Sequence record: NC_073076.1
DNA length: 44,417 nucleotides
Reading direction: 5' to 3' (one strand)
DNA from: Escherichia phage jat
The position numbers were made by a program, and so were the translations under genes. The notes under the pieces were generated by a model, which saw only the letters and a program-made list of their open reading frames with translations, was not told where the DNA came from and did not search any database. Positions 3,338 to 24,790 of this stretch are shown here, in pieces. Position 1 is the first letter of the stretch, and the number at the start of each line of letters is the position of its first letter.

Positions 3338-4723
3338 TTAGTAGAAGTCTACAGTTGGAACAACGGCGATCGGACGAATCACTGGGAACAGGTGCGCAAT
3401 TGGGTATCCCGCGGCATCGTTCATGTGGTCCACACCGGCGGTCTTATCCGGCTCGCCTTTCTTCAGGTCGTAAACCTGCTGTTCCAGACATTTCGCTAGT
3501 GTAGGGCATTTATCCAGGTTGACAAAATACTGGCGCACGCCCTTCGAGTTGCACATCATCGTATTCATCGCGATCAATCGGTCTTTCACAGGCGGGTTAA
3601 CGCTGTCATACTCCACCTCGAAGCCCGCGTCTTCCAGTTGCGCGATATCTGACGACGATGCGTTGACAGTCTTGCGAGACTTGCCGCTGCTATCCGGGTA
3701 AACGACGACCCGACCGGCGGCACAATGATCGGGGTAGCGCTCCTCGATCGCCTCAATCATAGCCGGGGTATCAAACAGGTCTACGAATTCATCCACTGCG
3801 TGAATCTCGTCGCGGAACTCCTTGTTTTCGGTGATGCGCTGCCGTCTGACGTACACGACCGCCGCCATCTTCGTGACGTTAAAGTCCATACCGATAATCA
3901 GCGTGTCGTCCGGTTGCACTTCTTCGGTGCTGGCGTTCTCCTCGCGGTTGAACATCTTGTACACCGCGCCCGACGTAAGGTTGACAAACAGGCCGTTCAG
4001 GTACGCATCTATCAGGTTAGCCGGGTACTGACTGCGCAGCGTGTCGATAAAGTCTGCCGGTAAATGGTGGTTGTCCGTGGTCTTCGCCCGGATCAAGCGT
4101 TTCTGGTTGTCTTTCTCCACCTCGAAAATTTGGTACATCGCCCGGTAGCCTTCAGGCGTTGACACGATGACGAACTGGCGGACGAAGCCAGCACGCAGAC
4201 GACCGAGCAATTTGTGATATGCCGCCAGCGCGACGTCTTGCTTCGTGGTATCGAACTCGTCGGCAACAATCCACGCGGCATTAACCCCGATCAGGCGGGT
4301 ATAGTTCTCCATTGACTCACAGATAACGCGGGTCCATTTGCCTTTCACAAGCACGTTATAGATCTTGTCCTGCTTATTGAACTTCCACCGGAAGCCCGCC
4401 TCGTCGAATGCCTTTTCCAATTCCGGATACATGATTTTAACCAGGAGGGGAATCGTCGGTTCTGTTACGATGCCATCATGACCGGGGTTTAGTGTTAAAA
4501 GCTGGATGACCTTTCTCGCCGCGACCCATGACTTACCGCCGCCGAAGCCGGAACACAGGCCGAGGATTTTAGTCTTCGTGTCACGCAGTAGTTCAACCTG
4601 GTGCGGCAAGCAATCAGGCTGGTAAAGGCGGACGGCCTGCGCAACGCGTGTCGGGCGCGGCGGTCGGTTTCGCTTTGCGATCGCTCGTTCAAGGGCACGA
4701 TGTTCTGCCGCATAGTTACGCAT
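3338..4723 (-). CDS. terminase large subunit
   Basis: 461 aa; Walker A-like GFGGGKS near N-terminus, acidic nuclease-like C-terminal half; start overlaps TerS stop (TTAATG). Confidence 0.8.
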   Translation of the reverse strand: MRNYAAEHRALERAIAKRNRPPRPTRVAQAVRLYQPDCLPHQVELLRDTKTKILGLCSGFGGGKSWVAARKVIQLLTLNPGHDGIVTEPTIPLLVKIMYPELEKAFDEAGFRWKFNKQDKIYNVLVKGKWTRVICESMENYTRLIGVNAAWIVADEFDTTKQDVALAAYHKLLGRLRAGFVRQFVIVSTPEGYRAMYQIFEVEKDNQKRLIRAKTTDNHHLPADFIDTLRSQYPANLIDAYLNGLFVNLTSGAVYKMFNREENASTEEVQPDDTLIIGMDFNVTKMAAVVYVRRQRITENKEFRDEIHAVDEFVDLFDTPAMIEAIEERYPDHCAAGRVVVYPDSSGKSRKTVNASSSDIAQLEDAGFEVEYDSVNPPVKDRLIAMNTMMCNSKGVRQYFVNLDKCPTLAKCLEQQVYDLKKGEPDKTAGVDHMNDAAGYPIAHLFPVIRPIAVVPTVDFY

Positions 4724-5274
4724 TAATCACCCTGGCCTTTGCCGGTAGGTTCCACAACGACGTCGCCGTTATCATCTTCGTCGTCATCCAGCGGTACATC
4801 GTCCCTGACGCCGTGGTTAGCTTTAAGCAGGAAGGTAGCGAAGCCCGCCGCGATGGTCACGCCGCCAGCTTCCATCAGGAAGGTTTTTTGTAACTCCATT
4901 GCGTCCGCCATCGCCTCAGCGAACTCCTCATGCGCACGCGCCCAGCGATACAGGCAAGCTACGCCCACGCCGATTTCCGCGGCAAATCGACCGAAGGTTG
5001 GCATTTTGTTGCGGGGGATTACTTGCGCAGCGCCTTTATCAGAGTAGTTTACCTGCCAGGCGTCGGCGTCGGCAAAATAGCGGCGAAGCTGGTCGCAGTA
5101 AACGGATCGGTAGTCAGTAGGGCGTCCACATTTGCCGCCTTTACGGCGCTTTCCGTACTCGATTTCAGGTCCGAGATTGGTATGTTCTGTTTGCTCGCCT
5201 GGTTTACGGCGCGGGGTAACTGCTACTCGTCCGTCCAGTTTGGCGCGTCGGCCCTTTACTTTAATTTCTGCCAT
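4723..5274 (-). CDS. terminase small subunit (putative)
   Basis: 183 aa from ATG at 5274 (track ORF extends to 5373 but that would cover an upstream terminator hairpin); HTH-like segment TFGRFAAEIGVGVACLYRWARAHEEF; acidic C-terminus; immediately upstream of TerL. Confidence 0.5.
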   Translation of the reverse strand: MAEIKVKGRRAKLDGRVAVTPRRKPGEQTEHTNLGPEIEYGKRRKGGKCGRPTDYRSVYCDQLRRYFADADAWQVNYSDKGAAQVIPRNKMPTFGRFAAEIGVGVACLYRWARAHEEFAEAMADAMELQKTFLMEAGGVTIAAGFATFLLKANHGVRDDVPLDDDEDDNGDVVVEPTGKGQGD

Positions 5275-5356
5275 GATATAAGCCCTTTTGTGCATATGCG
5301 CCGACCATCGGCAACATAGGAGACGGCCCTGCCATCTAAGGTGGATTATAACAGGC

Positions 5357-5392
5357 ACAAAAAAGCCCACCAAATCGGCAGGCTGGGTGGCT
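5357..5392 (-). terminator. rho-independent terminator (minus strand)
   Basis: gcccacc / gggtggc imperfect stem (5365-5391), followed on minus strand by U6 (plus-strand A-run 5359-5364); just downstream of stop of 5405-6547 gene. Confidence 0.45.
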
Positions 5393-6689: not shown

Positions 6690-6750
6690 CTTGATTACTC
6701 CTCTCGTTGATTGGTTGCGGTATGGCCTCTATGTTGGTTGCGAGTCAAGC

Positions 6751-9236: not shown

Positions 9237-9502
9237 TTGCTCAGTCTCCAGTGTTTGCCTACCCGCTCAACGGCGGGCTTCCGGCGTAATGTAATACGAA
9301 TCCCCATTGGTTGCAAGGAAGTCCGCACCCTGAAATCGTGTTGTGCTGCAAACTGGTGCAAGTAGCGCGTCTGCGTCAGTGGCTTTACGTCGCCGCGATA
9401 GCACCAGAATACCGATTCGCCCTCAACCGCATTCTTAGCCCATATTCGTATGCAATGCAGGGGGATATGCCACGAAAGCTGTTTTGCTCGCCTACGTCCC
9501 AT
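9233..9502 (-). CDS. small basic hypothetical protein
   Basis: 89 aa, Arg/Trp/His-rich; ATG 9 nt after the stop of the upstream gene; ATGA overlap with downstream ORF. Confidence 0.35.
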   Translation of the reverse strand: MGRRRAKQLSWHIPLHCIRIWAKNAVEGESVFWCYRGDVKPLTQTRYLHQFAAQHDFRVRTSLQPMGIRITLRRKPAVERVGKHWRLSK

Positions 9503-9511
9503 TTTGGCCCC

Positions 9512-9991
9512 TTATTTCGCAAGCTGGGCGAATAGCTCACGCTGGGCTTTAATCCTGGCGACGTTTGTCACTGCCTTCTCGCCAATACCGAAGCGATAAG
9601 CCAGGCGCTCACGGGAGAATGCCAGCGCGTATTCATGGATTGCCTTACGCAGCGGACCCAGGTCATCCATGCTGGCGTCCATATCGTCTAGCGCACACAT
9701 GATTGACTGGTATGCCAGTGTCGCAAACTGGCGCGCACGGTCTACGTTGCCGTTCAGCGCCTTCGCTTCGTTCAGCTTTGCCAGGGCCAGTGAGTAATTC
9801 CAGATTAGTGCTCTCATTGTTCGGTCCTTCTTAGTGTTGTCGTCAACAATCGAGGCTTTACCGGAATTAACACGAATCATCACATCGTCCAGGGTAGACA
9901 TGCAAGTCGCCCCGCTTTCATAGGTGCCCGGGTCGTTGCTGGTGAAGGTGATAGTTGATTTACCGTCTTTGATGGTTACTGGAAATTTCAT
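9512..9991 (-). CDS. hypothetical protein
   Basis: 159 aa ORF; first gene downstream of the 9992-10473 intergenic region. Confidence 0.5.
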   Translation of the reverse strand: MKFPVTIKDGKSTITFTSNDPGTYESGATCMSTLDDVMIRVNSGKASIVDDNTKKDRTMRALIWNYSLALAKLNEAKALNGNVDRARQFATLAYQSIMCALDDMDASMDDLGPLRKAIHEYALAFSRERLAYRFGIGEKAVTNVARIKAQRELFAQLAK

Positions 9992-10206
9992 TTTGTTTGG
10001 TCCTCTCGTTGGTGTGCAACCAATCTAGCAGGGTGCCAGGCTGAATGCAACCAATATTAATCATGCGTATGAAAAAGTTGATCGCTATCTGCTGTGGCTG
10101 CAAACTGCATTTCCCGCCCGCCATTCTGCAACTCGCATTGGTTGCCTAGTTCACCGACGACCGCAATTTACATCATGTTGCCGTGTATTATGCAATCCCC
10201 GGATTT

Positions 10207-10372
10207 TATTCAGTCTCAGACGAGGGGGGCCATTGACCCCCGTCTAGTCTGAAAGACTGGGCTTTGTCCCGCTTGTCCCGCTCCTCTGGAAGCCGCGCCA
10301 TCCGGGGCGGGACGGGGGTGCTGTCCCGCTTTGTCCCGCCCCTTGTTTGTCCCGCTTTTTGTCCCGCTCAGT
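10207..10372. repeat. iteron element copy A: long imperfect hairpin plus six TGTCCCGC octamers
   Basis: Hairpin cagtctcagacgaggggggccattgacccccgtctagtctgaaagactg (10212-10259) followed by TGTCCCGC at 10265, 10274, 10323, 10334, 10349, 10361 and one inverted copy GCGGGAC at 10309; about 85 percent identical to 37643-37802. Confidence 0.65.
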
Positions 10373-10473
10373 TTATTCAGTTTTATTGCATAACTATTCA
10401 TTATACTCACACTACACGGCAACCAATACGACCAGATAAAAACACTCAAAATGGCAACCAATGCGCGCAAAAT

Positions 10474-12738
10474 TTAATCTTTTAAGTCGTCGTCGGTCGC
10501 CGAAAGCGTGATTGGTATGCTTGTTTTTATGACGATATTTGACGACCCATAGATGGCCCCGGTGTGCGGATCGGTATAAAAACCGAGTACGCCGCGCTCG
10601 ACCATATCGTCGATTGCCTTCGTCGACGTGCCACCTTTCGCCAGTCCAGCCTGGCGGACAATTGCCGATTTGCTGAATCCGGTATGGTCCGGGTTATCTT
10701 CCATCAGTTTTTCCAGTGCTGCATAAAGCACTTTCTCTTTTTCGTTGCGCGGCCCTGCGGCGTTCTCTTCCTTAACTGCTGCTTTGCCCGCGGCCTTCGC
10801 CTGTTCAATAGCGAACGGTGCCAGGGCAACCGGTACGAGGTAGAGAGTCTCGTCGCGTGGCGTGGAGGCAATCGGCTTGACGTCCCATCCGGCAACCACG
10901 TCGCCGAAGTCTGGCCCGGTGCTGGTGGACTGGTGCACCTCGAACGCTTCTGACTTGCGGAGATCCACCTTCACCTTGCACTTGAGCAGGACGAAGCCGC
11001 GCGGCGCTTGCTTGATGCCGTTACGTGACTTTTCGTGATACAGGTTCAATTGTCCGGGCTGGTTGTCGTCCGGCTGTTCCAGGAAGAACGCAGAATCGAC
11101 AGCACCATGCAGCGCGCCGGATCCGCGTGGGGTTCTGCTGCCGTTGGCACCCTTCGCCGGGTGGTGGATGACGCCCGCACTGCCACCTGTATTTTCCGCA
11201 ATGGCTTTCAGCGCTTTGACCACTTCACCCATATCGCTGGCGTTGTTCTCGTCGAACGGTTTGGCATCGGCGGACCGCAGCGCAACCGTCTGGTTGAGTG
11301 AGTCGAACGCCACCAGGCCAACCGGTTCGCCGTTAGCGGTGCGGTTGATGAAGCTGATAACTTCACGCAAGCCGGATTTGCTGGTGATATCCCAGCCGCG
11401 TGATTGCAGATCGATAATGTGCAGCTTGTCGAGGTCGTGCTCGTATTTGATCTGCAATGCTTCCTTACGCTGGTTGGAGGCTTCGCCACCTTCCGCGTCG
11501 AAATAGAAGCAATGGGACTGGACGACCTTCGCACCGCCGAACGGAATCCCCGCGGCAACCGCACCCATTTGCCCCAGCACGTAGAAAGACTTACCGATAT
11601 TCGACTCACCCGCCATGTACCAGGTCGATTTAAAGTTGACCAGGCCTTCTATGATCGGGTCGTGCTTACTGAACAGCGCAACCGGCTCGTTGTCCAGGTC
11701 AGCGTCGGTACATACGCCGTACTCGTCGCCGTCTCCGACCGCATCAACGATATGTTCATAGCACGATTCCACTTCCTCGTCGTCCAGCCCCGGAAGGATG
11801 GCGGCGATTTGCTTACGTGACATGTTGTGTGGCTCGACGTTCAGGTGGTCCGGGATCCCGATAAGACGTAGCGCCAGGTGCTGGTGTCTGTTCAGTTCCG
11901 AGCAACACTCGTTGCCGGTGTGCATACACTTGAAACGGATCTCGCCATCCTTAACCATGATAGCGGTGGACCCTTCGCCGCTGTGCAGGTGTTCGTTCGG
12001 GCATGGCACTTCATAACCACGACCAGACGACAGCGGTTCGAATCCCGCCTGGAAGCACCAATCCAGAATACCGTCCGCCACACCATCATCGCCCTGGGTC
12101 AGTTCGCGGCGTACTTCCTCTTTCTCGACTCCCAGCTTGTCCGCCAGGCGGAGCAGACGACGGACGCGGGCGCGCTTGCCGTAGTGGCACTTAACGACAG
12201 ACTGCTGATGTGGCAGGTACATAAGGCGGTTTGTGTCTTTTGTACAGTCGTCGAAGTCCACATCTGACAGACCCAGTTGGTGTAATAGTGCATACTGGAC
12301 GCGGCCCAGGTCTTCAGCCGGTACAGGCTTGTCCGTGAGCACCAGGAAACGGGCGCAACGCGTGCCCCCTTTCAGCGGGTGGCGGTCGCCGGTGGTGGTG
12401 TGAAATACGTGTTCCAGACCCGCGTCGATGAACGCCTTACGGCAGCGGCGAAGGGTGCGGGTGTCGGTGCGGTCAATATCGAAGAACAGGATCGAGCGGT
12501 CCACGGCACTGGTCTTGCGGCGCAGCCCATCACTGGTATAAGCCACAATGCCATCAGCCTTACGCTTACGGCGGGCGTACTCGGCTTTATCTTCCGTCTT
12601 GTTGATATGCACCGAGGAGATTTCTTTCGCATCATTGATAAATTCGAAAAACTCTTCGGTAGTCATCTGGAAGTTTTCCGCCCTGGCTTTTTCGCCTTTT
12701 TTAGCGGGTCGTGTTACTGCGAATTTAATTAAGCTCAT
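10474..12738 (-). CDS. primase-helicase (prim-pol-like N-terminus, Zn-ribbon, RecA-like ATPase)
   Basis: 754 aa; DIDRTD acidic motif in N-terminal domain, Cys/His cluster CPNEHLH...CMHTGNEC, Walker A GESNIGKS and Walker B-like LVAFDSL. Confidence 0.7.
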   Translation of the reverse strand: MSLIKFAVTRPAKKGEKARAENFQMTTEEFFEFINDAKEISSVHINKTEDKAEYARRKRKADGIVAYTSDGLRRKTSAVDRSILFFDIDRTDTRTLRRCRKAFIDAGLEHVFHTTTGDRHPLKGGTRCARFLVLTDKPVPAEDLGRVQYALLHQLGLSDVDFDDCTKDTNRLMYLPHQQSVVKCHYGKRARVRRLLRLADKLGVEKEEVRRELTQGDDGVADGILDWCFQAGFEPLSSGRGYEVPCPNEHLHSGEGSTAIMVKDGEIRFKCMHTGNECCSELNRHQHLALRLIGIPDHLNVEPHNMSRKQIAAILPGLDDEEVESCYEHIVDAVGDGDEYGVCTDADLDNEPVALFSKHDPIIEGLVNFKSTWYMAGESNIGKSFYVLGQMGAVAAGIPFGGAKVVQSHCFYFDAEGGEASNQRKEALQIKYEHDLDKLHIIDLQSRGWDITSKSGLREVISFINRTANGEPVGLVAFDSLNQTVALRSADAKPFDENNASDMGEVVKALKAIAENTGGSAGVIHHPAKGANGSRTPRGSGALHGAVDSAFFLEQPDDNQPGQLNLYHEKSRNGIKQAPRGFVLLKCKVKVDLRKSEAFEVHQSTSTGPDFGDVVAGWDVKPIASTPRDETLYLVPVALAPFAIEQAKAAGKAAVKEENAAGPRNEKEKVLYAALEKLMEDNPDHTGFSKSAIVRQAGLAKGGTSTKAIDDMVERGVLGFYTDPHTGAIYGSSNIVIKTSIPITLSATDDDLKD

Positions 12739-12748: not shown

Positions 12749-13078
12749 TTACTTAGACGTTTTATTATTGCGTACCCATGAGCGCACGGTGCTCTGATTA
12801 ATTCCGGTTAACTCGGCGATCATTGCCCATGACTTTCCCTCATTGCGCAAACGGATAACCTGCTTTTTGTATTCTTCCATTTCTTCATTGTGTTTTTGCA
12901 GCTTGCTTGCTGCCGTGCCGTTGAGCAATTCCAGCTTCGCGGTAAGCTCCTTCTCAGCACGCGATAATCTGGACACTTCAAATAACAGAGTATCCACCGC
13001 ATTTGTGTAATACCAGGATTTACCCGCTTCGCCGCGGATTGCATTAGATAACACTTCAATTGCTTCTTTGATATTCAT
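12749..13078 (-). CDS. HTH DNA-binding protein, putative transcriptional regulator
   Basis: 109 aa; C-terminal HTH GKSWAMIAELTGINQSTVRSWVRN; AGGAGA SD; sits at a divergent regulatory region. Confidence 0.5.
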   Translation of the reverse strand: MNIKEAIEVLSNAIRGEAGKSWYYTNAVDTLLFEVSRLSRAEKELTAKLELLNGTAASKLQKHNEEMEEYKKQVIRLRNEGKSWAMIAELTGINQSTVRSWVRNNKTSK

Positions 13079-13253: not shown

Positions 13254-13283
13254 TTGACACCCATCCTGCAACCAATCTATCAT
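13254..13283 (+). promoter_or_regulatory. sigma70-like promoter for the early plus-strand genes
   Basis: TTGACA (13254-13259), 18-bp spacer, TATCAT (13278-13283); spacer contains the recurring TGCAACCAAT motif. Confidence 0.4.
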
Positions 13284-13479
13284 TCACTCCGTCGACAGGA
13301 TGCAGGACGCAAACTGGAGAGGGGCAACGCAGGGGCCGGATCGAAGTGTCAGGATTCCCAACCGTGATTATATAACCAGGTCCACTACCCGAACGGGAGA
13401 ACGCGTAACCTGGCAATATGTTAAGGCCACCGACGAAGTTAACTGCCGACACCTAAACTTAACCAATCGGAGATATACC

Positions 13480-13923
13480 ATGTTTGAGCAAATCGTAAAC
13501 CTGATCACTCGCGGCGTAGTAGCACTGGAAGTCATAGCTAAGCATTATGAAACTGCTGGCGCTGCCGTTGGTAAGCAGGAAGACAAGAAGCCGTCTAAGT
13601 CCAAAAAAGAAGTCGTAGAAGATGACGACGACGAAGACGAAAAACCGGCTAAATCTAAAAAAGCACCGGCTAAATCTAAAAAAGCACCGGCGAAAGGCAA
13701 AGGTAAGAAAGATGCCGATCCGCTGGCAGAGATGCGCGACGAAATCAAACAGTATGCCGCGATTATTGCCGGTGGCGATGATGACGACGCGAACGACGAA
13801 TTTGATGACCTGCTGGAAGCGTTCGAGATCAAATCAATCGCCAAGCTGGAAGATGACGACGTCGAAGACTTCCACAAAGAGCTAAAAGAAATCGTCGAAA
13901 CTTATTTCGAACTGGAAGATTAA
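13480..13923 (+). CDS. low-complexity protein with Lys-rich AKSKKAPAK repeats and strongly acidic C-terminal half
   Basis: 147 aa from ATG 13480 (GGAGA SD); track ORF starts earlier at 13300 but without SD; runs of D/E (DDDDEDE, DDDDANDEFDD, EDDDVED). Confidence 0.5.
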   Translation: MFEQIVNLITRGVVALEVIAKHYETAGAAVGKQEDKKPSKSKKEVVEDDDDEDEKPAKSKKAPAKSKKAPAKGKGKKDADPLAEMRDEIKQYAAIIAGGDDDDANDEFDDLLEAFEIKSIAKLEDDDVEDFHKELKEIVETYFELED

Positions 13924-13927
13924 TATC

Positions 13928-14053
13928 ATGGACTATGAAATGAGAATCATGCTCGATTTCATAGCGGAAAATTGGGCGGCATTCACCGCCTTCTGCGAAG
14001 AAAGAGGCGACGACCCGGACGAGGTTTATAGACAACTCGGCGGTGAAGATTAA
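13928..14053 (+). CDS. small acidic hypothetical protein (41 aa)
   Basis: MDYEMRIMLDFIAENWAAFTAFCEERGDDPDEVYRQLGGED; followed immediately by terminator. Confidence 0.3.
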   Translation: MDYEMRIMLDFIAENWAAFTAFCEERGDDPDEVYRQLGGED

Positions 14054-14059
14054 TATTAT

Positions 14060-14089
14060 CCGGCCCGCTAATCTGCGGGCCTATTTTTA
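14060..14089 (+). terminator. rho-independent terminator
   Basis: ggcccgc/gcgggcc stem with taatct loop followed by TATTTTT. Confidence 0.5.
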
Positions 14090-14101
14090 GAGGACGAGAC
14101 A

Positions 14102-14353
14102 ATGGCACGCTTCACGCTAATCGAGGCGGTGGACTCCCGCGACCAGCGCCCGTACTATTGGCTATTCGAACGCATCGGCAGCTTTCAGTCACGCGTTGCC
14201 GTAATAGATAAACGCCGTAACACCCCCGCGCAAATTAAGCGCACCACCTTTATTAATCCCGACTTTTATATTTGGGCGGATTCCAATCTGGAATATGTTC
14301 GCTTCGCAGTTGCATCCGAAGCAAAAACAATTGACCGCTGGGAGACAAAATAA
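14102..14353 (+). CDS. hypothetical protein
   Basis: 83 aa; GAGGA SD upstream of ATG. Confidence 0.45.
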   Translation: MARFTLIEAVDSRDQRPYYWLFERIGSFQSRVAVIDKRRNTPAQIKRTTFINPDFYIWADSNLEYVRFAVASEAKTIDRWETK

Positions 14354-14542
14354 ATGGCTATATTCTTTGTTTTATTTCGTTGCCGTATTACCGGCGACGA
14401 GCAACCCGAAATCGTTATGAATCAAAACTGGAATTGCTGCTGGATGCAAGCTCGAGGACTGGCGGCTACCATGAACAATGCCGCGAAGCGGGCCAATGTT
14501 GAACACGATTATTACATTGCTCAATTTTCAAGGGTGGAATAA
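14354..14542 (+). CDS. hypothetical protein
   Basis: 62 aa; start abuts previous stop. Confidence 0.3.
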   Translation: MAIFFVLFRCRITGDEQPEIVMNQNWNCCWMQARGLAATMNNAAKRANVEHDYYIAQFSRVE

Positions 14543-15972
14543 TGGCGATTAAACCGAAGCGCAAAACACAATCCGGTAGTAATACGGAACATTCATTACT
14601 TGGGCCATCTGGATCTAAAAAATGGATGGGGTGCCCTGCCGCCCTGGTGGTCGAAAAAGATATCCCGAACGAATCCGGGCAAGCTGCGATTAACGGTACG
14701 AGTATGCACACTGTATCAGAGGTCGTGCTAAACCGCATCATTGCCGGGGAAAAGCTGATAACCGCAAAAACGTACAAAGGGTGCTACGTCGAGAATGAAG
14801 GCAAGGGGCCAGTAAAGGCGCACCCGAAAGCGCCGAAAGGCGGCGTACTGGTCAACGACGACATGGTGAAACAGTGCGACGCGTACATCGACCACTGGCG
14901 ACCGCTCCTCGAAGTGGCGGAGTTTGTTCAGCTTGAGATGCGCGCCGATCTCACCCGCGTCCTACACTCTGGCTTCGAGATCGACGGCAACCGGGTTAAG
15001 ACGTTCGGCACTGCGGATATGGTCATGGTCATGAAGAAGACCGACGGCACGTACATGCTGATTGTTGGCGACCTGAAGACGGGGCGGCATAAGGTCGAGG
15101 CGAAAGAAAACAAACAGCTTATGTTGTATGCGCTGGGCCTGCTGCGCAAGCTGAAAACTATGTACGACATTACGACCGTGCGCCTGGTTATCTTCCAGCC
15201 GTATTGCGGCGGGGCGTCGGAGTGGGATATTTCGGTAGAAGCCCTGGAGATATTCGCTAAGTTTGCGTCAAAGCGTGCTATCGCCGCCCTGGAAGCGTAC
15301 GCCCGCGGCAAAAAGGGACTCACCCGTGCCGACTTCCGACCGAGCGTTGATGCGTGTCAGTGGTGCAGATTTGCGGATCAGTGTAGCGCCCGCGCTAAGG
15401 CTGCAATCGACACGATGACCCCACCAACGGCAACAGACGAAGACCTGGGCGACGACGTAAGTATTGCGACAGAGGAAGAATGCGCCAATCACGACCGCAA
15501 TATGGCCCGCGAAGCCCGCAAAGCGGCACGACGTGCGAAGCGTGGCAAGAAAGAAGCGGCCCCAGGCGCTATGAGCGCTGCGGAACTGCGCAAGGCTTAT
15601 GAAGGCCTGGACGCAATGCGCCAGCACATCAAAGCTATCGAGTCCGCGGTATTCAAAGCGGTAATGGCGGGCGATGGCGAATCGCTGGGCCTCAAGATGG
15701 TTGCCGGTAAGGAAGGGATCCGTAAGTGGGCGGACGAGAGCGAAGTTATTGAAATCTTCACGAAGGCCCGGATCAAGCGCGATGTGATGTACAAAGAAAC
15801 ATTGCTCAGCCCTACGGATGCCGAGAAGGTACTGAAGGACGAAAAACCGAAAGTGTGGGCGAAGCTGTGTGATAAAATCACGCGCGCACCAGCCAAACCG
15901 GTGTTAGCACCAATCGACGACCCGCGCCCTGCGTGGTCGGAAGCTACTGACGAGGACTTAAGCAATGAATAA
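14542..15972 (+). CDS. PD-(D/E)XK nuclease with C-terminal Cys cluster (DUF2800 / Cas4-RecB-like)
   Basis: 476 aa; D...D-x-K core in FGTADMV...VGDLKTGRHK...QLMLYALGL and CQWCRFADQC cluster; sits beside the SSB-like and PolA genes. Confidence 0.6.
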   Translation: MAIKPKRKTQSGSNTEHSLLGPSGSKKWMGCPAALVVEKDIPNESGQAAINGTSMHTVSEVVLNRIIAGEKLITAKTYKGCYVENEGKGPVKAHPKAPKGGVLVNDDMVKQCDAYIDHWRPLLEVAEFVQLEMRADLTRVLHSGFEIDGNRVKTFGTADMVMVMKKTDGTYMLIVGDLKTGRHKVEAKENKQLMLYALGLLRKLKTMYDITTVRLVIFQPYCGGASEWDISVEALEIFAKFASKRAIAALEAYARGKKGLTRADFRPSVDACQWCRFADQCSARAKAAIDTMTPPTATDEDLGDDVSIATEEECANHDRNMAREARKAARRAKRGKKEAAPGAMSAAELRKAYEGLDAMRQHIKAIESAVFKAVMAGDGESLGLKMVAGKEGIRKWADESEVIEIFTKARIKRDVMYKETLLSPTDAEKVLKDEKPKVWAKLCDKITRAPAKPVLAPIDDPRPAWSEATDEDLSNE

Positions 15973-16207
15973 AGTATTCGCAATATTATTGATGTTTGTT
16001 ATCGGCGCGCTGGGCTTTATCCTGCATTGTGTGCATGGCGTGTTAATGGTGGCGTGGATGATTCGGCATCCGACCCGCTGGCTGGATGACGGTTATAGCG
16101 AAGCTGCCGCCGATTGGGTGGCGAAGAATATCGACCGCCCGCCATTAAGCTGGATCGAGAACGCTACCGACTACGTTACCAGAAATCTTTTTAATGAAAA
16201 TGCTTGA
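15965..16207 (+). CDS. small membrane protein, hypothetical
   Basis: 80 aa; N-terminal hydrophobic helix FAILLMFVIGALGFILHCVHGVLMVAWMI. Confidence 0.4.
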   Translation: MNKVFAILLMFVIGALGFILHCVHGVLMVAWMIRHPTRWLDDGYSEAAADWVAKNIDRPPLSWIENATDYVTRNLFNENA

Positions 16208-16297
16208 CCGCTTAGGCGCAACCAAGTAAATTGGCAACCAAGCCGAACGGGGTGGCTTCCAATAACCCCGATACATGTGAAAATGAGGAATTGGAAA

Positions 16298-17080
16298 ATG
16301 GCTAAAGTCAACCTGAAAAATGTGCGCGTATGCTTCCTGAAAATTTGGGAACGTGATACCCCTAAACAGGATGGACAAAAACCGGCATACCGTGCCGTGA
16401 TTCTTCTGGATAAAGAAGATCCGCAGGTGGACAAAGTGGAAGCGGCAGCGCGCGCAGTGCTCACCGACAAGCTGAAATCCGAGAAGAATGCCGATAAGTG
16501 GATGGACCGCCACTACGCCCAGGATTCTAAGGAATGCGCAGTTCGCGACGGCGACGAGCGCGATGAAGTAACCGAAGAATTCGAAGGCATGTTGTATATC
16601 AACGCCAAATCGTTCAAACAACCAATCATTCAAACGTCACTCGGCGAGAAGCAGACTGAACAAGGTCTGACCATCGACGGCGACGAGATTGAAGGCCAGG
16701 AGATCTACTCTGGTTGTTATTGCAACGTGTCCCTTGATATTTGGGCGTGGAACAACACCAACGGCAAGGGACTCGGTGCTGGCTTGCTGGGTTTACGCTT
16801 CCGTGATGACGGTGAAGCCTTCGGCGGTGGCGGGTCTTCTTGCTCCGATGAAGACCTGGACAACGACGACGAAGACGAAGCACCGCGCAAGGCTAAGAAG
16901 TCAAAACGTCGTGATGACGATGATGAAGATGACAAGCCGCGCAAGTCCAAGAAATCCAAGCGCCGCGATGACGACGACGATGAGGAAGATGAAAAACCTC
17001 GCAAACGTCGTAAGCCACGCGATGACGAAGATGAGGACGACGACGAAGACGAAGCACCACGCAAACGTCGCCGCCGTTAA
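16298..17080 (+). CDS. single-stranded DNA-binding protein-like (T7 gp2.5 / DUF2815-like) with repetitive charged C-terminal tail
   Basis: ATG 16298 with GAGGA SD (track uses GTG 16277); block IYSGCYCNVSLDIWAWNNTNGKGLGAGLLGLRFRDDGEAFGGGG resembles gp2.5-type SSB core; three repeats of acidic run + PRK(S/A)KKSKRR. Confidence 0.5.
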   Translation: MAKVNLKNVRVCFLKIWERDTPKQDGQKPAYRAVILLDKEDPQVDKVEAAARAVLTDKLKSEKNADKWMDRHYAQDSKECAVRDGDERDEVTEEFEGMLYINAKSFKQPIIQTSLGEKQTEQGLTIDGDEIEGQEIYSGCYCNVSLDIWAWNNTNGKGLGAGLLGLRFRDDGEAFGGGGSSCSDEDLDNDDEDEAPRKAKKSKRRDDDDEDDKPRKSKKSKRRDDDDDEEDEKPRKRRKPRDDEDEDDDEDEAPRKRRRR

Positions 17081-17097
17081 GGGCAAAGCCCACTATT

Positions 17098-17124
17098 CAA
17101 GCCCGCTTAATGCGGGCTTTTTAA
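17098..17124 (+). terminator. rho-independent terminator
   Basis: agcccgc/gcgggct stem with ttaat loop followed by T5. Confidence 0.6.
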
Positions 17125-17138
17125 TAGGACAATGAAAA

Positions 17139-17309
17139 ATGCGTATTAAAGCCAGCGAAGTAAAAGTCGGGATGAAAGTATGGTCCAAGCTACTGGGGGA
17201 ATATTTCACAGTTGCCGAGATTCGCAACAACGGCGAAGAAATCGCCCTGTCCGACGGCATCTTCTCCATGATCGGCAGCGCTGACGCCGTAGTGAGGATA
17301 AAGCAATGA
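17139..17309 (+). CDS. small hypothetical protein (56 aa)
   Basis: MRIKASEVKVGMKVWSKLLGEYFTVAEIRNNGEEIALSDGIFSMIGSADAVVRIKQ; stop overlaps PolA start (ATGA). Confidence 0.4.
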   Translation: MRIKASEVKVGMKVWSKLLGEYFTVAEIRNNGEEIALSDGIFSMIGSADAVVRIKQ

Positions 17310-19597
17310 AAGACTTCGAACGTCTGTTTCTCGACACCGAGACATTTAGCGGGGTGGACCTGAAGAAAGTGGGGGCGTACGCCTACGCAGAGCACCCAAC
17401 CACCGAGATTATGATTTGCACCTACGCCATCGACGAGGGCCGCGTGCAGACATGGGATTGCACTGAATCCCCCACAATGCCGCGTGAACTGCGCAAGGCG
17501 CTCCGCCATGTTTCCCGCAAGAAAGCAAAAATAGTGATGGCTAACGGCCTCCTGTTTGACCGCCTGGTTATCCGTGAGAAGTGGGGCATCGACCTGCCGG
17601 TAAGCCAGATCGAAGACACCATGATTATGGCATTTCGCCACGCGCTGCCCGGTAGCCTCGATATGCAGTGCCAGGTGCTGGGCGTTGACGCAGAGCACGC
17701 GAAGGATAAGGCAGGCAAGGCGCTGATTAAACGATTCTGTAAGCCCACCCCTAAGACCTACAAAATCCGCCGCTACACACGCGAGACGCACCCCGAAGAA
17801 TGGGCCAAATTCTTGCGCTATGCCGCGCTGGATATTGTTGCCATGCGTGAAGTCTACTGGCGCATACCGGACTGGGGCAACTCACCGAAGGAAGATGAAA
17901 TCCTGCTCATCGACCAGTTGATTAACGACCGCGGCTTCTACGTTGACGTTGACCTGGCGAACGCCGCGATCAAAGCGGTGCAGGCGCATAAGGAAGAATT
18001 GAAGGAAGAAGCCTGGGAGCGGTTTGGCGGTAAGCTGACCGGCAATGACTTCCTGCCAATCCTGCGTGATATTGCGCCAGCATTCACGATACACAACGCG
18101 CAGAAATCCACACTTAACGACCTGCTTGAAGACCCGGACTTCCCCGACGAAGGCAAAGCGCTTATCGAAATGCGCCTCGGTGCGTCATCAACGGCATCGA
18201 CTAAGTACAATCCGCTAGTTAACGGCTTATCCGCAGATGGTCGCCGCCGTGGGTGTCTTCAGTATGGTGGCGCAAAGCGCACGCTGCGCTGGGCTGGTAA
18301 AGGCTTCCAGCCTCAAAACCTGGCACGCGGCGAGTATAGCGACGATCACGAAGGGAAGATTAAGCGCCGCGAAGGCGAGAGCGACGTTGCTTTTTGGGTC
18401 CGGTCGCACATGCTCACCAACGGCATCAATTCCCTGTTACGCGGGACCGCGCACTGGGCGTATGACATATCTAAGCTAACAGCCTCGACCGTTCGCGGGT
18501 GCATTATCCCGGCTAAGGGCAAGAAGTTTGTCGTAGCGGACTACTCTAACGTGGAAGGGCGTGGCCTCGCCTGGATCGCTGGTGAGAAAACCGCGCTAAT
18601 GGTGTTTAGGGCCGGTCGCGATATTTATTGTGAAACTGCCGGTAAGATGTTCGGCCTTGACCCGGAATACATTAAAGCCAACCGCAAAGACCTACGCCAG
18701 ATTGGTAAGGCGTGTGAGTTGGGACTTGGCTATGGCGGCGGCGTGGCTGCGTTCTTGCAGTTCGCTAAAAACCTGGGCCTCGACCTTTACGCGATGGCGG
18801 ACGTCATGAAGGGCACATTCCCCGATCACATTTGGGCAGCGGCTAAACGGGGTTATGAGTACGCCCGCATTAACGAAGCGAAGCGACCGCCGAAGCCGGG
18901 CAAGAAGGACGAGCGCCCGACTTACATACTGACTAAAAACGTTTGGCTGACCTGCGACGCGATCAAACGCATGTGGCGTGAGGCCCACCCGAAGACGGTA
19001 GCCTTTTGGGCCGAGCTTGAGGACGCGGTGTTGTGTGCAATCCGCAATCCTGGCAAAGCGTACTGGGCTGGCGCGAGCGTTCGCCCGGATGGTAAGAAAG
19101 CGCTCAAGATAGTCCGCACGAAGGCGAAGCATGACCCAACCTTCGACGAGGAACGCGACGACCCGAACGCCGCGGGGTGGTGGTTGAAAATTGAGTTGCC
19201 GTCGGGGCGTATTATGAGTTATCCGGGCATTGCGCTGTCTGTCACTACCGAGATCGACGAAGATACTGGCAAGAAACGCACCAGCACCCGCATTAAATAT
19301 CAGGGCGAGAATCAGACGACCCGCCAGTGGGGCTTCCAGTACACCTACGGCGGCAAACTCACGGAAAACATCGTACAGGCGCTGTGTCGCGATATCCTCG
19401 CATGGTCCATGCCTGGCGTTGAAGCTGCGGGATATGAGATCGTACTGTCCGTACACGATGAACTGATAACCGAAGTTCCGGATACTGACGACTACACAAC
19501 CGAGGAGTTGTGCGCGCTGATGTGCGACCTGCCTGTTTGGGCGAAAGGCTTCCCGCTTGCCGCGGAAGGCGACATTATGTACAGGTACAGGAAATAA
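17306..19597 (+). CDS. DNA polymerase, family A, with 3'-5' exonuclease domain
   Basis: 763 aa; exo motif LFLDTETFSG; motif A DYSNVEGR, motif B RQIGKACELGLGYGGG, motif C SVHDEL. Confidence 0.9.
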   Translation: MKDFERLFLDTETFSGVDLKKVGAYAYAEHPTTEIMICTYAIDEGRVQTWDCTESPTMPRELRKALRHVSRKKAKIVMANGLLFDRLVIREKWGIDLPVSQIEDTMIMAFRHALPGSLDMQCQVLGVDAEHAKDKAGKALIKRFCKPTPKTYKIRRYTRETHPEEWAKFLRYAALDIVAMREVYWRIPDWGNSPKEDEILLIDQLINDRGFYVDVDLANAAIKAVQAHKEELKEEAWERFGGKLTGNDFLPILRDIAPAFTIHNAQKSTLNDLLEDPDFPDEGKALIEMRLGASSTASTKYNPLVNGLSADGRRRGCLQYGGAKRTLRWAGKGFQPQNLARGEYSDDHEGKIKRREGESDVAFWVRSHMLTNGINSLLRGTAHWAYDISKLTASTVRGCIIPAKGKKFVVADYSNVEGRGLAWIAGEKTALMVFRAGRDIYCETAGKMFGLDPEYIKANRKDLRQIGKACELGLGYGGGVAAFLQFAKNLGLDLYAMADVMKGTFPDHIWAAAKRGYEYARINEAKRPPKPGKKDERPTYILTKNVWLTCDAIKRMWREAHPKTVAFWAELEDAVLCAIRNPGKAYWAGASVRPDGKKALKIVRTKAKHDPTFDEERDDPNAAGWWLKIELPSGRIMSYPGIALSVTTEIDEDTGKKRTSTRIKYQGENQTTRQWGFQYTYGGKLTENIVQALCRDILAWSMPGVEAAGYEIVLSVHDELITEVPDTDDYTTEELCALMCDLPVWAKGFPLAAEGDIMYRYRK

Positions 19598-19875
19598 TGA
19601 CACCAGAAGGCAAGATTCAAAGTCACTTGATGAGACGGGTGAAAGCCGTCGGCGGATTCTGCCGCAAAGTTGCTTGGGAGGGGCGCGCAGGTGCTCCCGA
19701 TCTGATTATCATCATCAACGGCAGAATAGTTTTCGTCGAAGTGAAGCGCCCCGGAGGCAAACCGAAGCCGCACCAGGTACGAGAACATGAGCGGATGGCC
19801 CGCCGCGGTGCGGACGTTCGCGTCATCGACAACATAGCCGACTGTGATTTATTGGTTGCTGAATTGGTCGCTTAA
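19597..19875 (+). CDS. VRR-NUC domain nuclease
   Basis: 92 aa from ATG overlapping PolA stop (TAATG); PDL...EVK...Q pattern of PD-(D/E)XK VRR-NUC. Confidence 0.65.
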   Translation: MTPEGKIQSHLMRRVKAVGGFCRKVAWEGRAGAPDLIIIINGRIVFVEVKRPGGKPKPHQVREHERMARRGADVRVIDNIADCDLLVAELVA

Positions 19876-19916
19876 CAGTATAGTGAGCAGGTTAGCACTA
19901 ACGAGGATTTTAGAAA

Positions 19917-20089
19917 TGATTGAAGAAAAACGCTGCAGTAATTGCGGTTGCATCAAGCCGTTATCCCAGTTCCACAAATACACCGGTAAGACTGCGCGAA
20001 GTCCAGACGGGTATCGGGCCGAGTGCAAATCATGCCGCAATAAGAAAGAGCGCGAACGGCAGCGCCGCTACCGCGCAGCGCAAGAATAA
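19917..20089 (+). CDS. small Zn-ribbon protein
   Basis: 57 aa; CSNCGC ... CKSCRNK pairs of cysteines, basic C-terminus. Confidence 0.4.
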
Positions 20090-20095
20090 TTAATA

Positions 20096-20120
20096 CGGCG
20101 GGCTTGTCCCGCCATTTTTG
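20096..20120 (+). terminator. rho-independent terminator
   Basis: ggcggg/cccgcc stem with cttgt loop followed by ATTTTTG; stem-loop contains TTGTCCCGCC, the octamer of the iteron arrays. Confidence 0.5.
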
Positions 20121-20132
20121 GGAGACATGACG

Positions 20133-20351
20133 ATGAAAGAACACTACCGACTCACCACACTGGGCGAATGCAAACCAGGCGATCGCGTATGGTTTATCGC
20201 GGGCATGAACTACCCGCTGCCGTTGACGGTGTGCTGGCAAAAATTTAAGAGCTTCCGGGCGACCGGCGTGCACATCGGACACGCCACCAACTACGACGCC
20301 ACAAAAAGGAACTGGAACAGTGAAACCGAAGTCTGGAAAAAGGCGGAATAA
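20133..20351 (+). CDS. hypothetical protein
   Basis: 72 aa from ATG 20133 (GGAGA SD 7 nt upstream); track ORF begins at TTG 20118. Confidence 0.4.
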   Translation: MKEHYRLTTLGECKPGDRVWFIAGMNYPLPLTVCWQKFKSFRATGVHIGHATNYDATKRNWNSETEVWKKAE

Positions 20352-21780
20352 AGAAATGGCACGATTCCGACGCCGCGAATATCAGAAGTTGATAACCGCG
20401 TTCATCCTCAAGCATAAGCGCTGCAATATTTGGGCGACAATGGGGTCGGGTAAAACCGGCGCGACCATGTGGGCGCTGAATAAAATGTTCCAGACCGGCA
20501 TCCTGTCCAACCAGGATGACCGCGTACTGGTGCTGGCCCCGCTGCGCGTTGCGTCCGGTACATGGCCCCCGGAACAGGAGAAATGGCGCTTCCCAGCCTT
20601 GCTGGTAGTAGACGGCACTGGGTCAGAGAAGGACCGCATCGCTGCGCTTGAGAGCGACGCTAACGTGGTTTGTATTAACTATGATGTAGTTGAGTGGCTT
20701 GTCGAGTATTGCGGCGACGAGTGGCCCTTTACGGTCGTGGTTGCCGATGAATCCACTAAGCTGAAAGGATATAGAAGCAAGCAGGGAAGTAAGCGCGCCC
20801 GTGCGCTGGCAGCGATCGCACATAAGCACGTCAAGCGCTGGATTAACCTTACCGGCACACCCGCACCGAACGGGCTGAAAGACCTATGGGGCCAGACGTG
20901 GTTTGTCGACGGCGGCGAACGCCTCGGCAGTAGCTATAAGGCGTTCACGGACCGCTGGTTTATTAGCAAGCCTGTTAAGCCTGGCAGCTTCACGATGCAG
21001 CACGCCCCGCTTAAGAACTCCGAGAAAGAAATACAACAACGTCTGTCAGATGTATCCCTCACCGTTGACGCGGCGGAATACTTCGGGTGCGACAAGCCAA
21101 TCTATACGCCGGTTGTTGTGGACCTGCCGAAGAAAGCGCGCAAGATTTATGACCAGTTTGAAAGCGAGCTATTTGCCGAACTGGAAAGCGGAACAGTGGA
21201 AGCGGCGAACGCGGCATCGAAGACAATTAAGTGCCTTCAGCTTGCATCCGGGGCCGTGTATAAGGTGGACGAAGACGGCGAACGGACCGACGAGTGGGTG
21301 AAGATTCACGACGCGAAGCTGGACGCGCTGGAAAGTATCGTGGAGGAGTTGAACGGTGCGCCGTTGCTCGTTGCGTATCAGTACAAGCATGACCTGGCAC
21401 GTCTTAAGAAGAAATTTCCGCACGGCGTTGCGCTGGGTAAAGGTAAGCAGGGAAATAAGGATATGGAAGCGTGGAACAGAGGCGAGATCCCCATCATGTT
21501 TGCGCACCCGGCATCGGCGGGCCACGGCCTTAACTTGCAGGACGGCGGTCATCACCTGGCAATCTTCTCCGATACCTGGAACTTTGAGCACTTTTCGCAG
21601 ATCGTTGAACGTATCGGGCCGGTTCGCCAGATGCAAGCAGGACACCCCCGTCCGGTATTCGTCTACATTATCCAGGCGCGCGGAACACTGGACGAACTGG
21701 TCGCCGAGCGTCGCGACAGTAAGCGGGATATTCAGGACGACTTGATGGAATACATGAAAGCTAAGAAGGCGCGCAAATGA
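20320..21780 (+). CDS. SNF2-family helicase / ATPase
   Basis: 486 aa; Walker A-like GSGKTG, DEAH-like VVADESTKLK; probable true start ATG 20356 (MARFRRREYQ) after SD. Confidence 0.75.
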   Translation: MKPKSGKRRNKEMARFRRREYQKLITAFILKHKRCNIWATMGSGKTGATMWALNKMFQTGILSNQDDRVLVLAPLRVASGTWPPEQEKWRFPALLVVDGTGSEKDRIAALESDANVVCINYDVVEWLVEYCGDEWPFTVVVADESTKLKGYRSKQGSKRARALAAIAHKHVKRWINLTGTPAPNGLKDLWGQTWFVDGGERLGSSYKAFTDRWFISKPVKPGSFTMQHAPLKNSEKEIQQRLSDVSLTVDAAEYFGCDKPIYTPVVVDLPKKARKIYDQFESELFAELESGTVEAANAASKTIKCLQLASGAVYKVDEDGERTDEWVKIHDAKLDALESIVEELNGAPLLVAYQYKHDLARLKKKFPHGVALGKGKQGNKDMEAWNRGEIPIMFAHPASAGHGLNLQDGGHHLAIFSDTWNFEHFSQIVERIGPVRQMQAGHPRPVFVYIIQARGTLDELVAERRDSKRDIQDDLMEYMKAKKARK

Positions 21781-22472: not shown

Positions 22473-22792
22473 ATACTACATTCGAAGCCATTGATTTTTC
22501 GGTTGCAATGACTAACCAGTTATTCTCCTACGACAGCAAAACCGGCGTCATTCGTCTGAAGTCCACCGGCTGCAAAATTGGCAACCTTAACACTGCCGAT
22601 GGCGGCACGCGCATCGAATGCAACGGCAAAACTCTATCGGGCGCACGCGTGGCGTGGATTATCGCGACCGGCAATACAATTCCTCCAGGCTACGCCGTTG
22701 TGTGCCGCCAGCGAACACCAGGCCACTACGGCAACCGAATCAGCAATCTGTATCTGGTAGACGTTGCACGCGACCCAAATTTTTATTCGTAA
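22469..22792 (+). CDS. hypothetical protein, possibly degenerate HNH-like endonuclease
   Basis: 107 aa; weak resemblance to HNH_3-type homing endonuclease core (ARVAWIIATGNTIPPGYAVV...HYGNRISNL); ATGA overlap with methyltransferase-like gene. Confidence 0.25.
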   Translation: MNTTFEAIDFSVAMTNQLFSYDSKTGVIRLKSTGCKIGNLNTADGGTRIECNGKTLSGARVAWIIATGNTIPPGYAVVCRQRTPGHYGNRISNLYLVDVARDPNFYS

Positions 22793-22827
22793 ATTGGTTG
22801 CATAATTAGATTGGTTGCATTATCTTA

Positions 22828-22858
22828 AGGGTGTCCGGTTGGACGCCTTTTTTTTTTA
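22828..22858 (+). terminator. rho-independent terminator
   Basis: ggtgtcc/ggacgcc stem (one G-U) with ggtt loop followed by T10. Confidence 0.55.
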
Positions 22859-22876
22859 ATACCGGGAGACAACACG

Positions 22877-24739: not shown

Positions 24740-24790
24740 TATAGTTAACGCGTCGGGGCAATATGGCCCCACGCTTAGAAGGACAACATA

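Follow-up and report, generated by a model that had tools for sequence, protein, structure and literature searches.

A putative iteron origin of replication beside the helicase-primase gene of Escherichia phage jat and its relatives

Described origins of a similar kind

In staphylococcal pathogenicity islands (SaPIs), the C-terminal winged helix of the replication protein Rep binds iterons located immediately 3' of rep, and these iterons are specific to the element, occur in both orientations, and have an AT-rich centre (PMC9371898). In Escherichia phage jat (NC_073076.1), whose 44,417-nt sequence was analysed as a whole and is hereafter called the window, a non-coding hub at positions 9992–10473 follows the gene for a fused helicase-primase and contains iterons, an AT-rich tract, and a hairpin. 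With moderate confidence, and on the strength of sequence comparisons, we suggest that the right two-thirds of the hub (~10195–10473) is an iteron origin read by the winged helix of this adjacent protein. Like SaPI Rep and PriRep (in SaPI5, with a fused primase), the jat protein has a C-terminal winged helix, here the predicted reader, and iterons with an AT-rich neighbour right after its gene. It differs in having a RepA-like helicase (AAA_25, RecA fold) where SaPIs have a superfamily 3 (SF3) or MCM-like one. Its iterons are 7–8 nt long rather than 5–6 nt, and its AT-rich tract is at the edge rather than the centre. Also unlike SaPIs, jat has a conserved hairpin and another module at a distance of 17/27 kb, and the carrier is a virulent siphophage of E. 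coli.

The alpha protein of P4 combines a primase of the Toprim type, a helicase, and a C-terminal winged-helix origin-binding domain in one polypeptide and binds origin repeats at a site beside its own gene (PMC4234260). A search of PDB sequences with the jat helicase-primase returned no matches, P4 alpha included, and neither that search nor the top Foldseek matches gave a sequence or fold match to the P4 origin-binding domain. In P4, the same octamer iterons are present in two separated regions, ori and crr, and the alpha helicase is of the SF3 type. Two separated clusters with the same iterons are likewise found in jat (10265–10367 and 37701–37958). In contrast to P4 alpha, the jat primase has the fold of archaeo-eukaryotic primases (AEP) rather than Toprim, and its helicase is AAA_25/RepA-like rather than SF3.

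ORF904 of plasmid pRN1 consists of an AEP prim-pol, a helicase, and a C-terminal winged helix, and an essential stem-loop that is conserved in structure and variable in sequence lies just 3' of its own gene, an arrangement that its authors also noted in some phages (PMC4234260). Whereas pRN1 has an SF3 helicase and no iterons, iterons dominate the hub of jat, and its hairpin is ~55 nt in length versus 100 nt. The oriV of plasmid RSF1010 has iterons, an AT-rich segment, and hairpin single-strand initiation (ssi) signals used by a dedicated primase. The jat protein resembles this system in its RepA-like helicase, as indicated by AAA_25 and a weak profile match to RSF1010 RepA (1g8y). However, RSF1010 divides these functions among three proteins (RepA, RepB', and RepC), its iterons are 20 bp long and are read by RepC, and each strand has one ssi hairpin, whereas jat has a single fused protein, iterons of 8 nt, and a single hairpin in each module.

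Overall, the arrangement in jat is of a known kind, and its repeats were already annotated in a congeneric phage, Sodalis phage SO-1. The GenBank record of SO-1 (NC_013600) marks the same two loci as repeat_region features, with "region B" 3' of the helicase-primase gene and "region A" preceding the gene for the tape measure, and describes both as "direct, inverted and palindromic repeat sequences" with mutual similarity. The record is an annotation only, without a binding protein, a mechanism, or a comparison across genera. The existence of the repeats is therefore already on record, and their function is not. We found no analysis of SO-1 regions A and B or of a Dhillonvirus origin in the literature searched, and no paper that mapped an origin in Dhillonvirus or related Guernseyvirinae (Jersey-like and Cornell-like Salmonella phages).

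Iterons, AT-rich tract, and hairpin of the hub

The hub is the gap between the stop codon of the helicase-primase gene (10474–10476) and the ATG, at 9991, of an open reading frame (ORF) of 159 aa. Transcription proceeds from right to left across it, and the helicase-primase gene is upstream solely in the sense of the - strand. The hub is present in all 157 Dhillonvirus records with a match, and its iteron and hairpin module occurs twice in nearly all of them. Conservation within the genus was counted in an alignment of 15 Dhillonvirus hubs in the direction of transcription. As the earlier note on this DNA had claimed, the hub is non-coding. Some database records carry small coding sequences annotated within it, including an 84-codon frame at 10216–10470 (- strand). 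This frame has no coding signature, with 44, 33, and 28 variable columns at the three codon positions, and is broken in four of the 15 phages.

Across the 15 hubs, the order of features is conserved. Directly 3' of the stop codon are two copies of CATTGGTTGCC, followed by the 14-mer TGAATAGTTATGCA within the AT-rich tract and a TG(C/A)ATAA box. Next are four direct (G/A)CGGGACA iterons, one inverted iteron, two more direct iterons, and the hairpin, whose stem is invariant and whose loop is variable. These are followed by a second TG(C/A)ATAA box, ACACGGCA(A/G)C, a third copy of the motif GCAACCAAT, and a conserved GATAGCGATCAACTTTTTCAT segment. The order ends with TTGCAT-17 nt-TA(G/T)ATT, overlapped by two copies of ATTGGTTGC, and then the ribosome-binding site and ATG. 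The hub is composite, its right two-thirds being most likely an origin and its left third (9992–10195) most likely a promoter and leader. The 176-nt core from box to box, at 10204–10379, is the part that is duplicated elsewhere in the genome, and it forms the core of what we refer to as module B.

The iterons, hairpin, AT-rich tract, and motif copies listed in the earlier note are all present in the sequence, and the repeats exceed chance. TGTCCCGC occurs on the + strand at 10265, 10274, 10322, 10332, 10348, and 10360. The window has 14 copies where 2.6 are expected, a count that none of 100 shuffles reached, and six further copies form a second cluster at 37701–37958. The inverted iteron, GGGGCGGGAC, is at 10304–10313, and its GCGGGAC starts at 10307, two positions to the left of where it had been placed. 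Read on the - strand, the array (10265–10367) is composed of six direct copies of GCGGGACA and one inverted copy, 107–209 nt past the helicase-primase stop codon. Their CGGGAC cores are unchanged across the 15 aligned phages. All iterons are 3' of the stop codon at 10474 and none is embedded in the coding sequence of the presumed initiator, unlike in an origin of the lambda type.

The AT-rich tract (10373–10415) is the least stable part of the hub in a stability profile. The 30-mers starting at 10370 and 10380 have values of -32.2 and -31.8 kcal/mol, the lowest stability in the hub and past the 99th percentile of the genome (-34.6 kcal/mol; mean of -42.9 kcal/mol, standard deviation of 3.4). 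The 14-mer TGAATAGTTATGCA lies within the tract at 10387–10400 (- strand) and is conserved in 14 of the 15 loci, with one substitution in the remaining locus (L018; L numbers are our labels). An exact scan of IMG/VR for TGAATAGTTATGCA found 120 loci, nearly all attributable to chance; only those in Dhillonviruses and one relative, L075, also encode the helicase-primase. A TATAAT within the tract is doubtful as part of a sigma-70 promoter: no acceptable -35 element is found at 16–18 nt, and a promoter scan found none from 9400 to 10900.

Other conserved sequences flank the iterons and the tract. The two copies of CATTGGTTGCC (10453–10462 and 10418–10427, - strand) are 35 nt apart and nearly invariant, with the first copy missing in L015 and a third copy present in five loci. 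In five of the 15 phages (L010, L012, L016, L019, and L023), a 54-nt insertion just 3' of the stop codon (~5256–5320 in these loci, ~10463 in the window) is a duplicate of the GCGCGCATTGGT(T/C)GCC module plus the palindrome ATATGGG(G/A)ATTCCCATAT. The module is bracketed by the inverted repeats ACACGGCAAC and TTATGCAAT; their left arm is GTTGCCGTGTATTATGCAAT at 10177–10196, and their right arms are at 10385–10393 and 10408–10423. TTATGCA occurs 14 times in the window compared to 5.8 expected, and six of these copies are within the two modules. Inspected by eye, TTATGCA, GATCAAC, and similar sequences each mismatched the consensus of the DnaA box, IHF site, or sigma-54 promoter as which they had been considered.

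A long imperfect hairpin of ~20 bp with bulges (10207–10262) adjoins the iterons. Folded with RNA parameters, it has a predicted energy of -33.1 kcal/mol on the + strand (z of -3.4) and -30.6 kcal/mol on the - strand (z of -2.4), and its sequence is found again at 37645–37697. The stem is unchanged in the 15 aligned loci. Seven lineages have a long imperfect hairpin of different sequence at the same relative position, and in five of them the non-mRNA strand, equivalent to the + strand of the window, gives the more stable fold. The G-T pairs of this strand are C-A mismatches in its complement, which explains a difference in stability as large as 10.5 kcal/mol in L030. An alignment across genera, small and partly ambiguous, resolves two sub-helices. 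Of the pairs predicted for one strand and the other, 5 of 10 and 7 of 13 have compensatory double changes. The structure of a single-stranded nucleic acid is therefore conserved at the hairpin.

The hairpin bears on a purely transcriptional explanation of the hub. Under this explanation the hairpin is a terminator, an RNase III site, or a put-like antiterminator RNA, the octamers and GCAACCAAT are operators for the lysis and structural operon, and the second repeat region boosts the expression of the tape-measure and distal tail genes. In favor of this explanation, a terminator is annotated at the hairpin in one record, and the two copies of the hairpin face the same way with respect to transcription. 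However, the hairpin lacks a U-tract and a terminator scan had no match at 10207–10262, leading us to reject an intrinsic terminator there. It is equally or more stable opposite to the mRNA across lineages. Rfam gave nothing at gathering thresholds for the whole window, and at E up to 5 the two repeat regions gave chance hairpin matches alone. The hairpin does not look like an mRNA terminator. By its likeness to the stem-loop of pRN1 and to the ssi hairpins of RSF1010, a reasonable guess is that it serves as a single-strand assembly or priming signal.

Lineage-specific iterons and the C-terminal winged helix

The helicase-primase (10474–12738, - strand; 754 aa) is a member of PHROG 3228, "replicative helicase-primase". 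Its helicase core matches Pfam AAA_25 (RepA-like) at residues 357–531 (E 6e-19). A model of the N-terminal 350 residues (pLDDT of 83) is closest to the AEP domain of S-2L cyanophage PrimPol (E 2.6e-5), followed by LigD-Pol and Prim-PolC. DxD and His/Asp columns are invariant in this primase domain, and an invariant Cys/His cluster, a zinc motif, lies C-terminal to it. Residues ~664–740, encoded at 10519–10749 (- strand), are assigned with moderate confidence to the winged helix, the candidate iteron reader. In an AlphaFold2 fragment model, ~70 of these residues (~664–734) have pLDDT of 84–91 and the topology H-H-H-beta-beta. The top Foldseek matches in PDB are all winged-helix DNA binders (MarR/MepR, ArsR-like, ScpB, histone H1, and an ORC/Cdc6-type chain). 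Separately, a family profile matched BurrH, a TALE-like DNA-binding repeat protein, at residues 677–719 (E 4e-5) inside the winged-helix region, which we took as a compositional or helical-repeat coincidence.

Homologs of the helicase-primase that are 37–69% identical are encoded by Guernseyvirinae-like phages (Cornellvirus PhiSTP1 and FSL SP-031, and Serratia phage Tsm2) and metagenomic contigs. In 11 such lineages, a non-coding gap of ~300–650 nt is located 3' of the gene. Its usual order is direct and inverted short repeats, TGAATAGTTATGCA once or twice (at a distance of 21 nt), further repeats, the hairpin, and TTATTCA..TTATGCA..ACACGGCA(A/G)C, after which a good sigma-70 promoter leads to the following gene. 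Parts are missing in some lineages, and Tsm2 lacks the 14-mer. The layout, TGAATAGTTATGCA included, is found in relatives with only 44% identity in the helicase-primase, and ACACGGCA(A/G)C is also conserved outside the genus. Related forms of GCAACCAAT, namely GCAACCAAC, CAGCCAAC, and GCTGCCAAC, are present in Tsm2, L033, L034, L075, and L175, often beside the 14-mer or just 5' of a ribosome-binding site.

All 11 lineages have iterons at the position seen in jat. Within this shared layout, the iterons are specific to lineages. They are AGGGATAA in L029, GGGGAGA in PhiSTP1, TCCGACA in L030, CGGACAA in L075, GGGGAT(G/A)A (GGGGATGA) in L034, TTCCGCACA in Tsm2, CTCGCAA in L174 and L176, and GGGGATC in L175. 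The 69% identical relative L173 has GCGGGACA, the same iteron as Dhillonvirus. PhiSTP1, L030, and L075 have their own iterons on both sides of the conserved TGAATAGTTATGCA box, and in PhiSTP1 the repeats form one cluster that is confined to the site after the helicase-primase gene. A conserved layout with fast-changing short repeats is the expected product of a specific pair of protein and DNA partners in recognition.

Some relatives have additional repeats. In Tsm2 (L036), another inverted pair of the lineage's iteron, TCCGCACA, lies at 20383–20411 between a tail gene and a spanin gene, and four copies of GCAACCAA lie at 9373–9494, inside the 3' end of the helicase-primase coding sequence. 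The hub of L173 has a (CACACG)n-like microsatellite, cacacgcacacgcacacgcacacg, at ~4080–4120 and two copies of GGCAACCAAT after the stop codon, in an orientation opposite to those of Dhillonvirus.

The winged helix is the fastest-diverging part of the helicase-primase, and differences in iterons coincide with differences in this domain. L029 and PhiSTP1 are 86% identical over residues 1–600 and 59% identical in the winged helix; for PhiSTP1 and L030, the corresponding values are 83% and 48%. In L034 and L075, the body is 73% identical and the winged helix 43%, and their iterons differ (GGGGATGA versus CGGACAA). Conversely, the window, L022, and L173 have in common CGGGACA and a similar recognition helix, GGT(S/N)T(K/T)AI. 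Such comparisons point to the winged helix of the helicase-primase as the predicted iteron reader. Judged from these sequences, iteron identity tracks the winged helix and not the small helix-turn-helix (HTH) protein encoded upstream.

We rejected this small protein as the iteron binder. It is of the HTH_23 type in Dhillonvirus and L173 and of an unrelated XRE type elsewhere, while the layout is common to them. Moreover, the XRE protein of L034 is the same as that of L075 over the stretch recovered for L075, HTH included, yet the iterons of the two differ. In the window, the protein (109 aa; 12749–13078, - strand) is a candidate early regulator that appears to have a coiled coil and a C-terminal HTH (HTH_23 / Sigma70_r4_2); databases label it "transposase" or "nuclease inhibitor gamma". 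The same comparison speaks against the transcriptional explanation introduced above, as the octamers co-vary with the replication protein and not with upstream HTH regulators.

From these features we infer the steps by which the hub could act as an origin. The helicase-primase, encoded immediately upstream, would bind the CGGGACA iterons via its C-terminal winged helix, and several protomers would assemble over the six direct and one inverted iterons. The adjacent unstable AT-rich tract that carries TGAATAGTTATGCA would then melt, and the RepA-like helicase ring would load there. The AEP primase domain would prime synthesis, with the neighbouring hairpin as a possible single-strand priming or assembly signal. 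The second 176-nt copy (37640–37814) may be a second origin or a cis-acting partner.

The second module, the promoter region, and DNA ends

The second copy of the iteron and hairpin core, corresponding to SO-1 region A, is located at 37640–37814 between the genes for a tail assembly chaperone and the tape measure. Its core has a TGCATAA box, iterons, the hairpin, and a TGAATAA box, and region A as a whole lacks the 14-mer and GCAACCAAT. Core length is 175–177 nt in both copies in all 14 genomes compared. Identity between the A and B cores is 0.858 within a genome versus 0.847 between genomes (permutation p of 0.002). Region A also has two extra perfect palindromic iteron pairs without a loop, in which GGGACAAAACGGGAC abuts GTCCCG(C/T)TTTGTCCC (37843–37885 and 37923–37962, within 37843–37962), and the AT-rich spacer between them has TGCATAA boxes. 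Stability in the region is lowest for the 30-mer at 37880–37909. As a whole, region A fills a gap of ~400 nt (37579–37962), an unusual place for non-coding DNA, and has four TTATGCA boxes. No copies of the module were found in E. coli chromosomes or plasmids, where satellites or prophages borrowing the origin might carry them.

The duplication allows for a more elaborate model, which we consider improbable. The origin would be bipartite, with two modules of 176 +/- 1 nt located 17 and 27 kb apart on the circle, both read by the same winged helix. The hairpin would be a priming signal on the non-coding strand, and sites associated with GCAACCAAT, including 10094, would be site-specific ends or nicks in virion DNA.

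The position of the hub relative to genes is relevant to a role in transcription. More than 100 Escherichia phages of Dhillonvirus, the genus of HK578- and SO-1-like siphophages, are 90–95% identical across a 2-kb stretch around the hub, and the window is collinear with phage UHP65 (44,416 bp). The window is therefore a single complete genome that is circularly permuted. Relative to annotated phage Bas84, genes on the - strand are ordered from ~13,078 leftwards round the circle to ~26,000 as the small HTH protein, helicase-primase, small and lysis genes, terminase, and head and tail genes. The remaining genes for DNA metabolism are on the + strand from 13,300 to 25,963. Cumulative GC skew was uninformative as an indicator of the origin; it merely follows gene orientation and the direction of transcription. 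The hub is thus between the early helicase-primase gene and a block of small, lysis, and morphogenesis genes, all on the - strand, a location that is consistent with the transcriptional explanation.

The distribution of GCAACCAAT is also in line with transcription. The earlier note had associated five copies of a motif given as TGCAACCAAT with the putative origin. Five copies are indeed in the hub, at 10016, 10047, 10419, and 10454 (+ strand) and 10137 (- strand), and they are not special to it or to an origin. In the window, GCAACCAAT occurs 14 times versus 0.56 expected, in both orientations and mostly at promoter or leader positions, and the nine sites outside the hub are mainly intergenic and mostly associated with promoters (13254–13283, 24716–24745, 6710–6741, 22793–22818, 27434–27442, and 43535–43557). 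The best sigma-70-like site of the genome, TTGACA-18-TATCAT at 13254–13283 in the divergent early region, has one copy in its spacer, and a palindromic pair lies over TTGCAA-18-TATAGT at 24716–24745. Copies at 6710, 27434, and 43549 are immediately 5' of ribosome-binding sites, and a pair at 22793 and 22810 precedes a strong terminator. GCAACCAAT is a family-wide promoter or leader motif rather than one specific to an origin.

The downstream operon has its probable promoter and leader at 10015–10145 (- strand), in the left part of the hub, with TTGCAT at 10045–10050, a spacer of 17 nt, TAGATT at 10022–10027, and a motif copy at 10137–10145. GCAACCAAT overlaps this TTGCAT-17-TA(G/T)ATT site upstream of the ATG at 9991, and two copies of ATTGGTTGC overlap its -35 and its -10 or start. 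The TTGCAT-17-TAGATT promoter was read from the sequence and its conservation in the 15 hubs and is below the threshold of a consensus scan. On that reading, the left 200 bp resembles a promoter region serving that operon. The octamers, however, are confined to the two modules and do not occur at promoters. The left part of the hub is probably regulatory, and the transcriptional explanation covers that part and not the iteron module; as an account of the entire hub it is unlikely.

Physical DNA ends raise the possibility, also named in the earlier note, that the hub is used in packaging. The hub, or its left part, would be a pac site for the first cut of headful packaging, and its short repeats would be sites for the small terminase subunit. 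Of 156 Dhillonvirus genomes on deposit, 13 start exactly at position 10094 (CAGCAGATAGCGATCAAC on the - strand), and in WF5505 an exact terminal repeat of 2,026 bp begins there. Depositors state that they opened contigs where most reads ended abruptly (PMC6563267). Position 10094 is between oppositely oriented copies of GCAACCAAT (10047 and 10137). A PhageTerm analysis of Opt-212 indicated headful packaging, which is also predicted for the genus (PMC9022532). TerL (3338–4723, - strand) is of the Terminase_6 type, and TerS (4723–5373, - strand), the small subunit, weakly matches the small-terminase families of P22 gp3 and Sf6, with a score under the curated cut-off. Both genes were assigned by comparison to Bas84.

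Other observations disfavor packaging. Sites for pac are usually in or next to terS, whereas the terminase genes (3338–5373) are ~5 kb from the hub. The reported end is 110–270 bp away from the iteron and hairpin module, which has a second copy in the tail operon and whose iteron identity tracks the winged helix of the helicase-primase. GCAACCAAT is found at nine other places, mainly associated with promoters. Most records are linearized by convention, and another laboratory's PhageTerm ends are elsewhere, at 22822. That study, of phage EE09, assigned a 5' cohesive end of 10 nt, ATCTTAAGGG (PMC10673088). It maps to 22822–22831 in the window, 3 nt from the ATTGGTTGC / GCAACCAAT pair and just before the strong terminator at 22827–22850. 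A cohesive end is at odds with the headful prediction for the genus. Nearby, a small ORF ending at 22792 is an HNH endonuclease in the annotation of Bas84 and had no Pfam match here. The data on ends are thus in conflict. Packaging stays under consideration because 13 of 156 genomes start at 10094, and the left part of the hub may carry a pac cut or a nick. As an explanation of the hub, however, packaging is unlikely.

The same ends could reflect a locus for recombination or site-specific DNA processing, such as nicking, cleavage, or a hotspot of module exchange, that has no role in initiation. Abrupt read ends reported by two laboratories are beside copies of GCAACCAAT (10094 and 22822), the A and B cores show weak concerted evolution (the within-genome excess in identity given above), variants of the hairpin loop occur in either copy depending on the genome, and the 54-nt insertion duplicates part of the hub. 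Conversely, no nuclease is linked to the sites, and the two reported ends have no sequence in common. The strict length of 176 nt, the invariant iteron cores, and the layout conserved across genera argue instead for a protein-DNA machine tied to the helicase-primase. We regard a locus solely for DNA processing as very improbable.

An origin in the right two-thirds of the hub is the reading best supported by the conserved layout, the winged helix, and the tracking of iterons with that domain, in agreement with the earlier note, which had recognized an origin layout in the region as a whole. The agreement does not extend to the left 200 bp, which is promoter-like. Several findings weigh against an origin. 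A second module within a tail operon is odd for an origin, and the genome starts at 10094 inside the hub suggest packaging in at least a portion of it. The AT-rich tract adjoins one edge of the CGGGACA array, with iterons on one side and copies of a different motif, ATTGGTTGCC, on the other. Adjacency to the gene is not universal: in the more distant L025–L028, L031, and L032, a terminator and convergent genes follow the helicase-primase gene, and there are no repeats. The model of the C-terminal 220-residue fragment has a mean pLDDT of 62, its Foldseek matches have E of 0.01–0.3 (probability up to 0.99), and the origin-binding domain of P4 alpha is not among the top ones. Lastly, the link between iterons and winged helix is drawn from ~12 lineages and is confounded by phylogeny.

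Dhillonvirus and Guernseyvirinae are common in phage collections and in work on therapy. If the proposed origin is correct, ~280 bp and one gene would make up a compact and portable pair of origin and initiator, and origins would be predictable from sequence across this large group of phages. The ~ten specificities of iteron and winged helix would constitute a natural series for studying how the specificity of initiators evolves. They would also provide targets for engineering, including conditionally replicating phages, tests of origin incompatibility, and plasmid vectors driven by infection. GCAACCAAT is a separate regulatory signal that extends across the genome and is worth its own study. 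Should the bipartite model hold, then initiation, late transcription, and the formation of DNA ends would be tied to one small hub in a family of phages that is widely used for therapy and host-range work.

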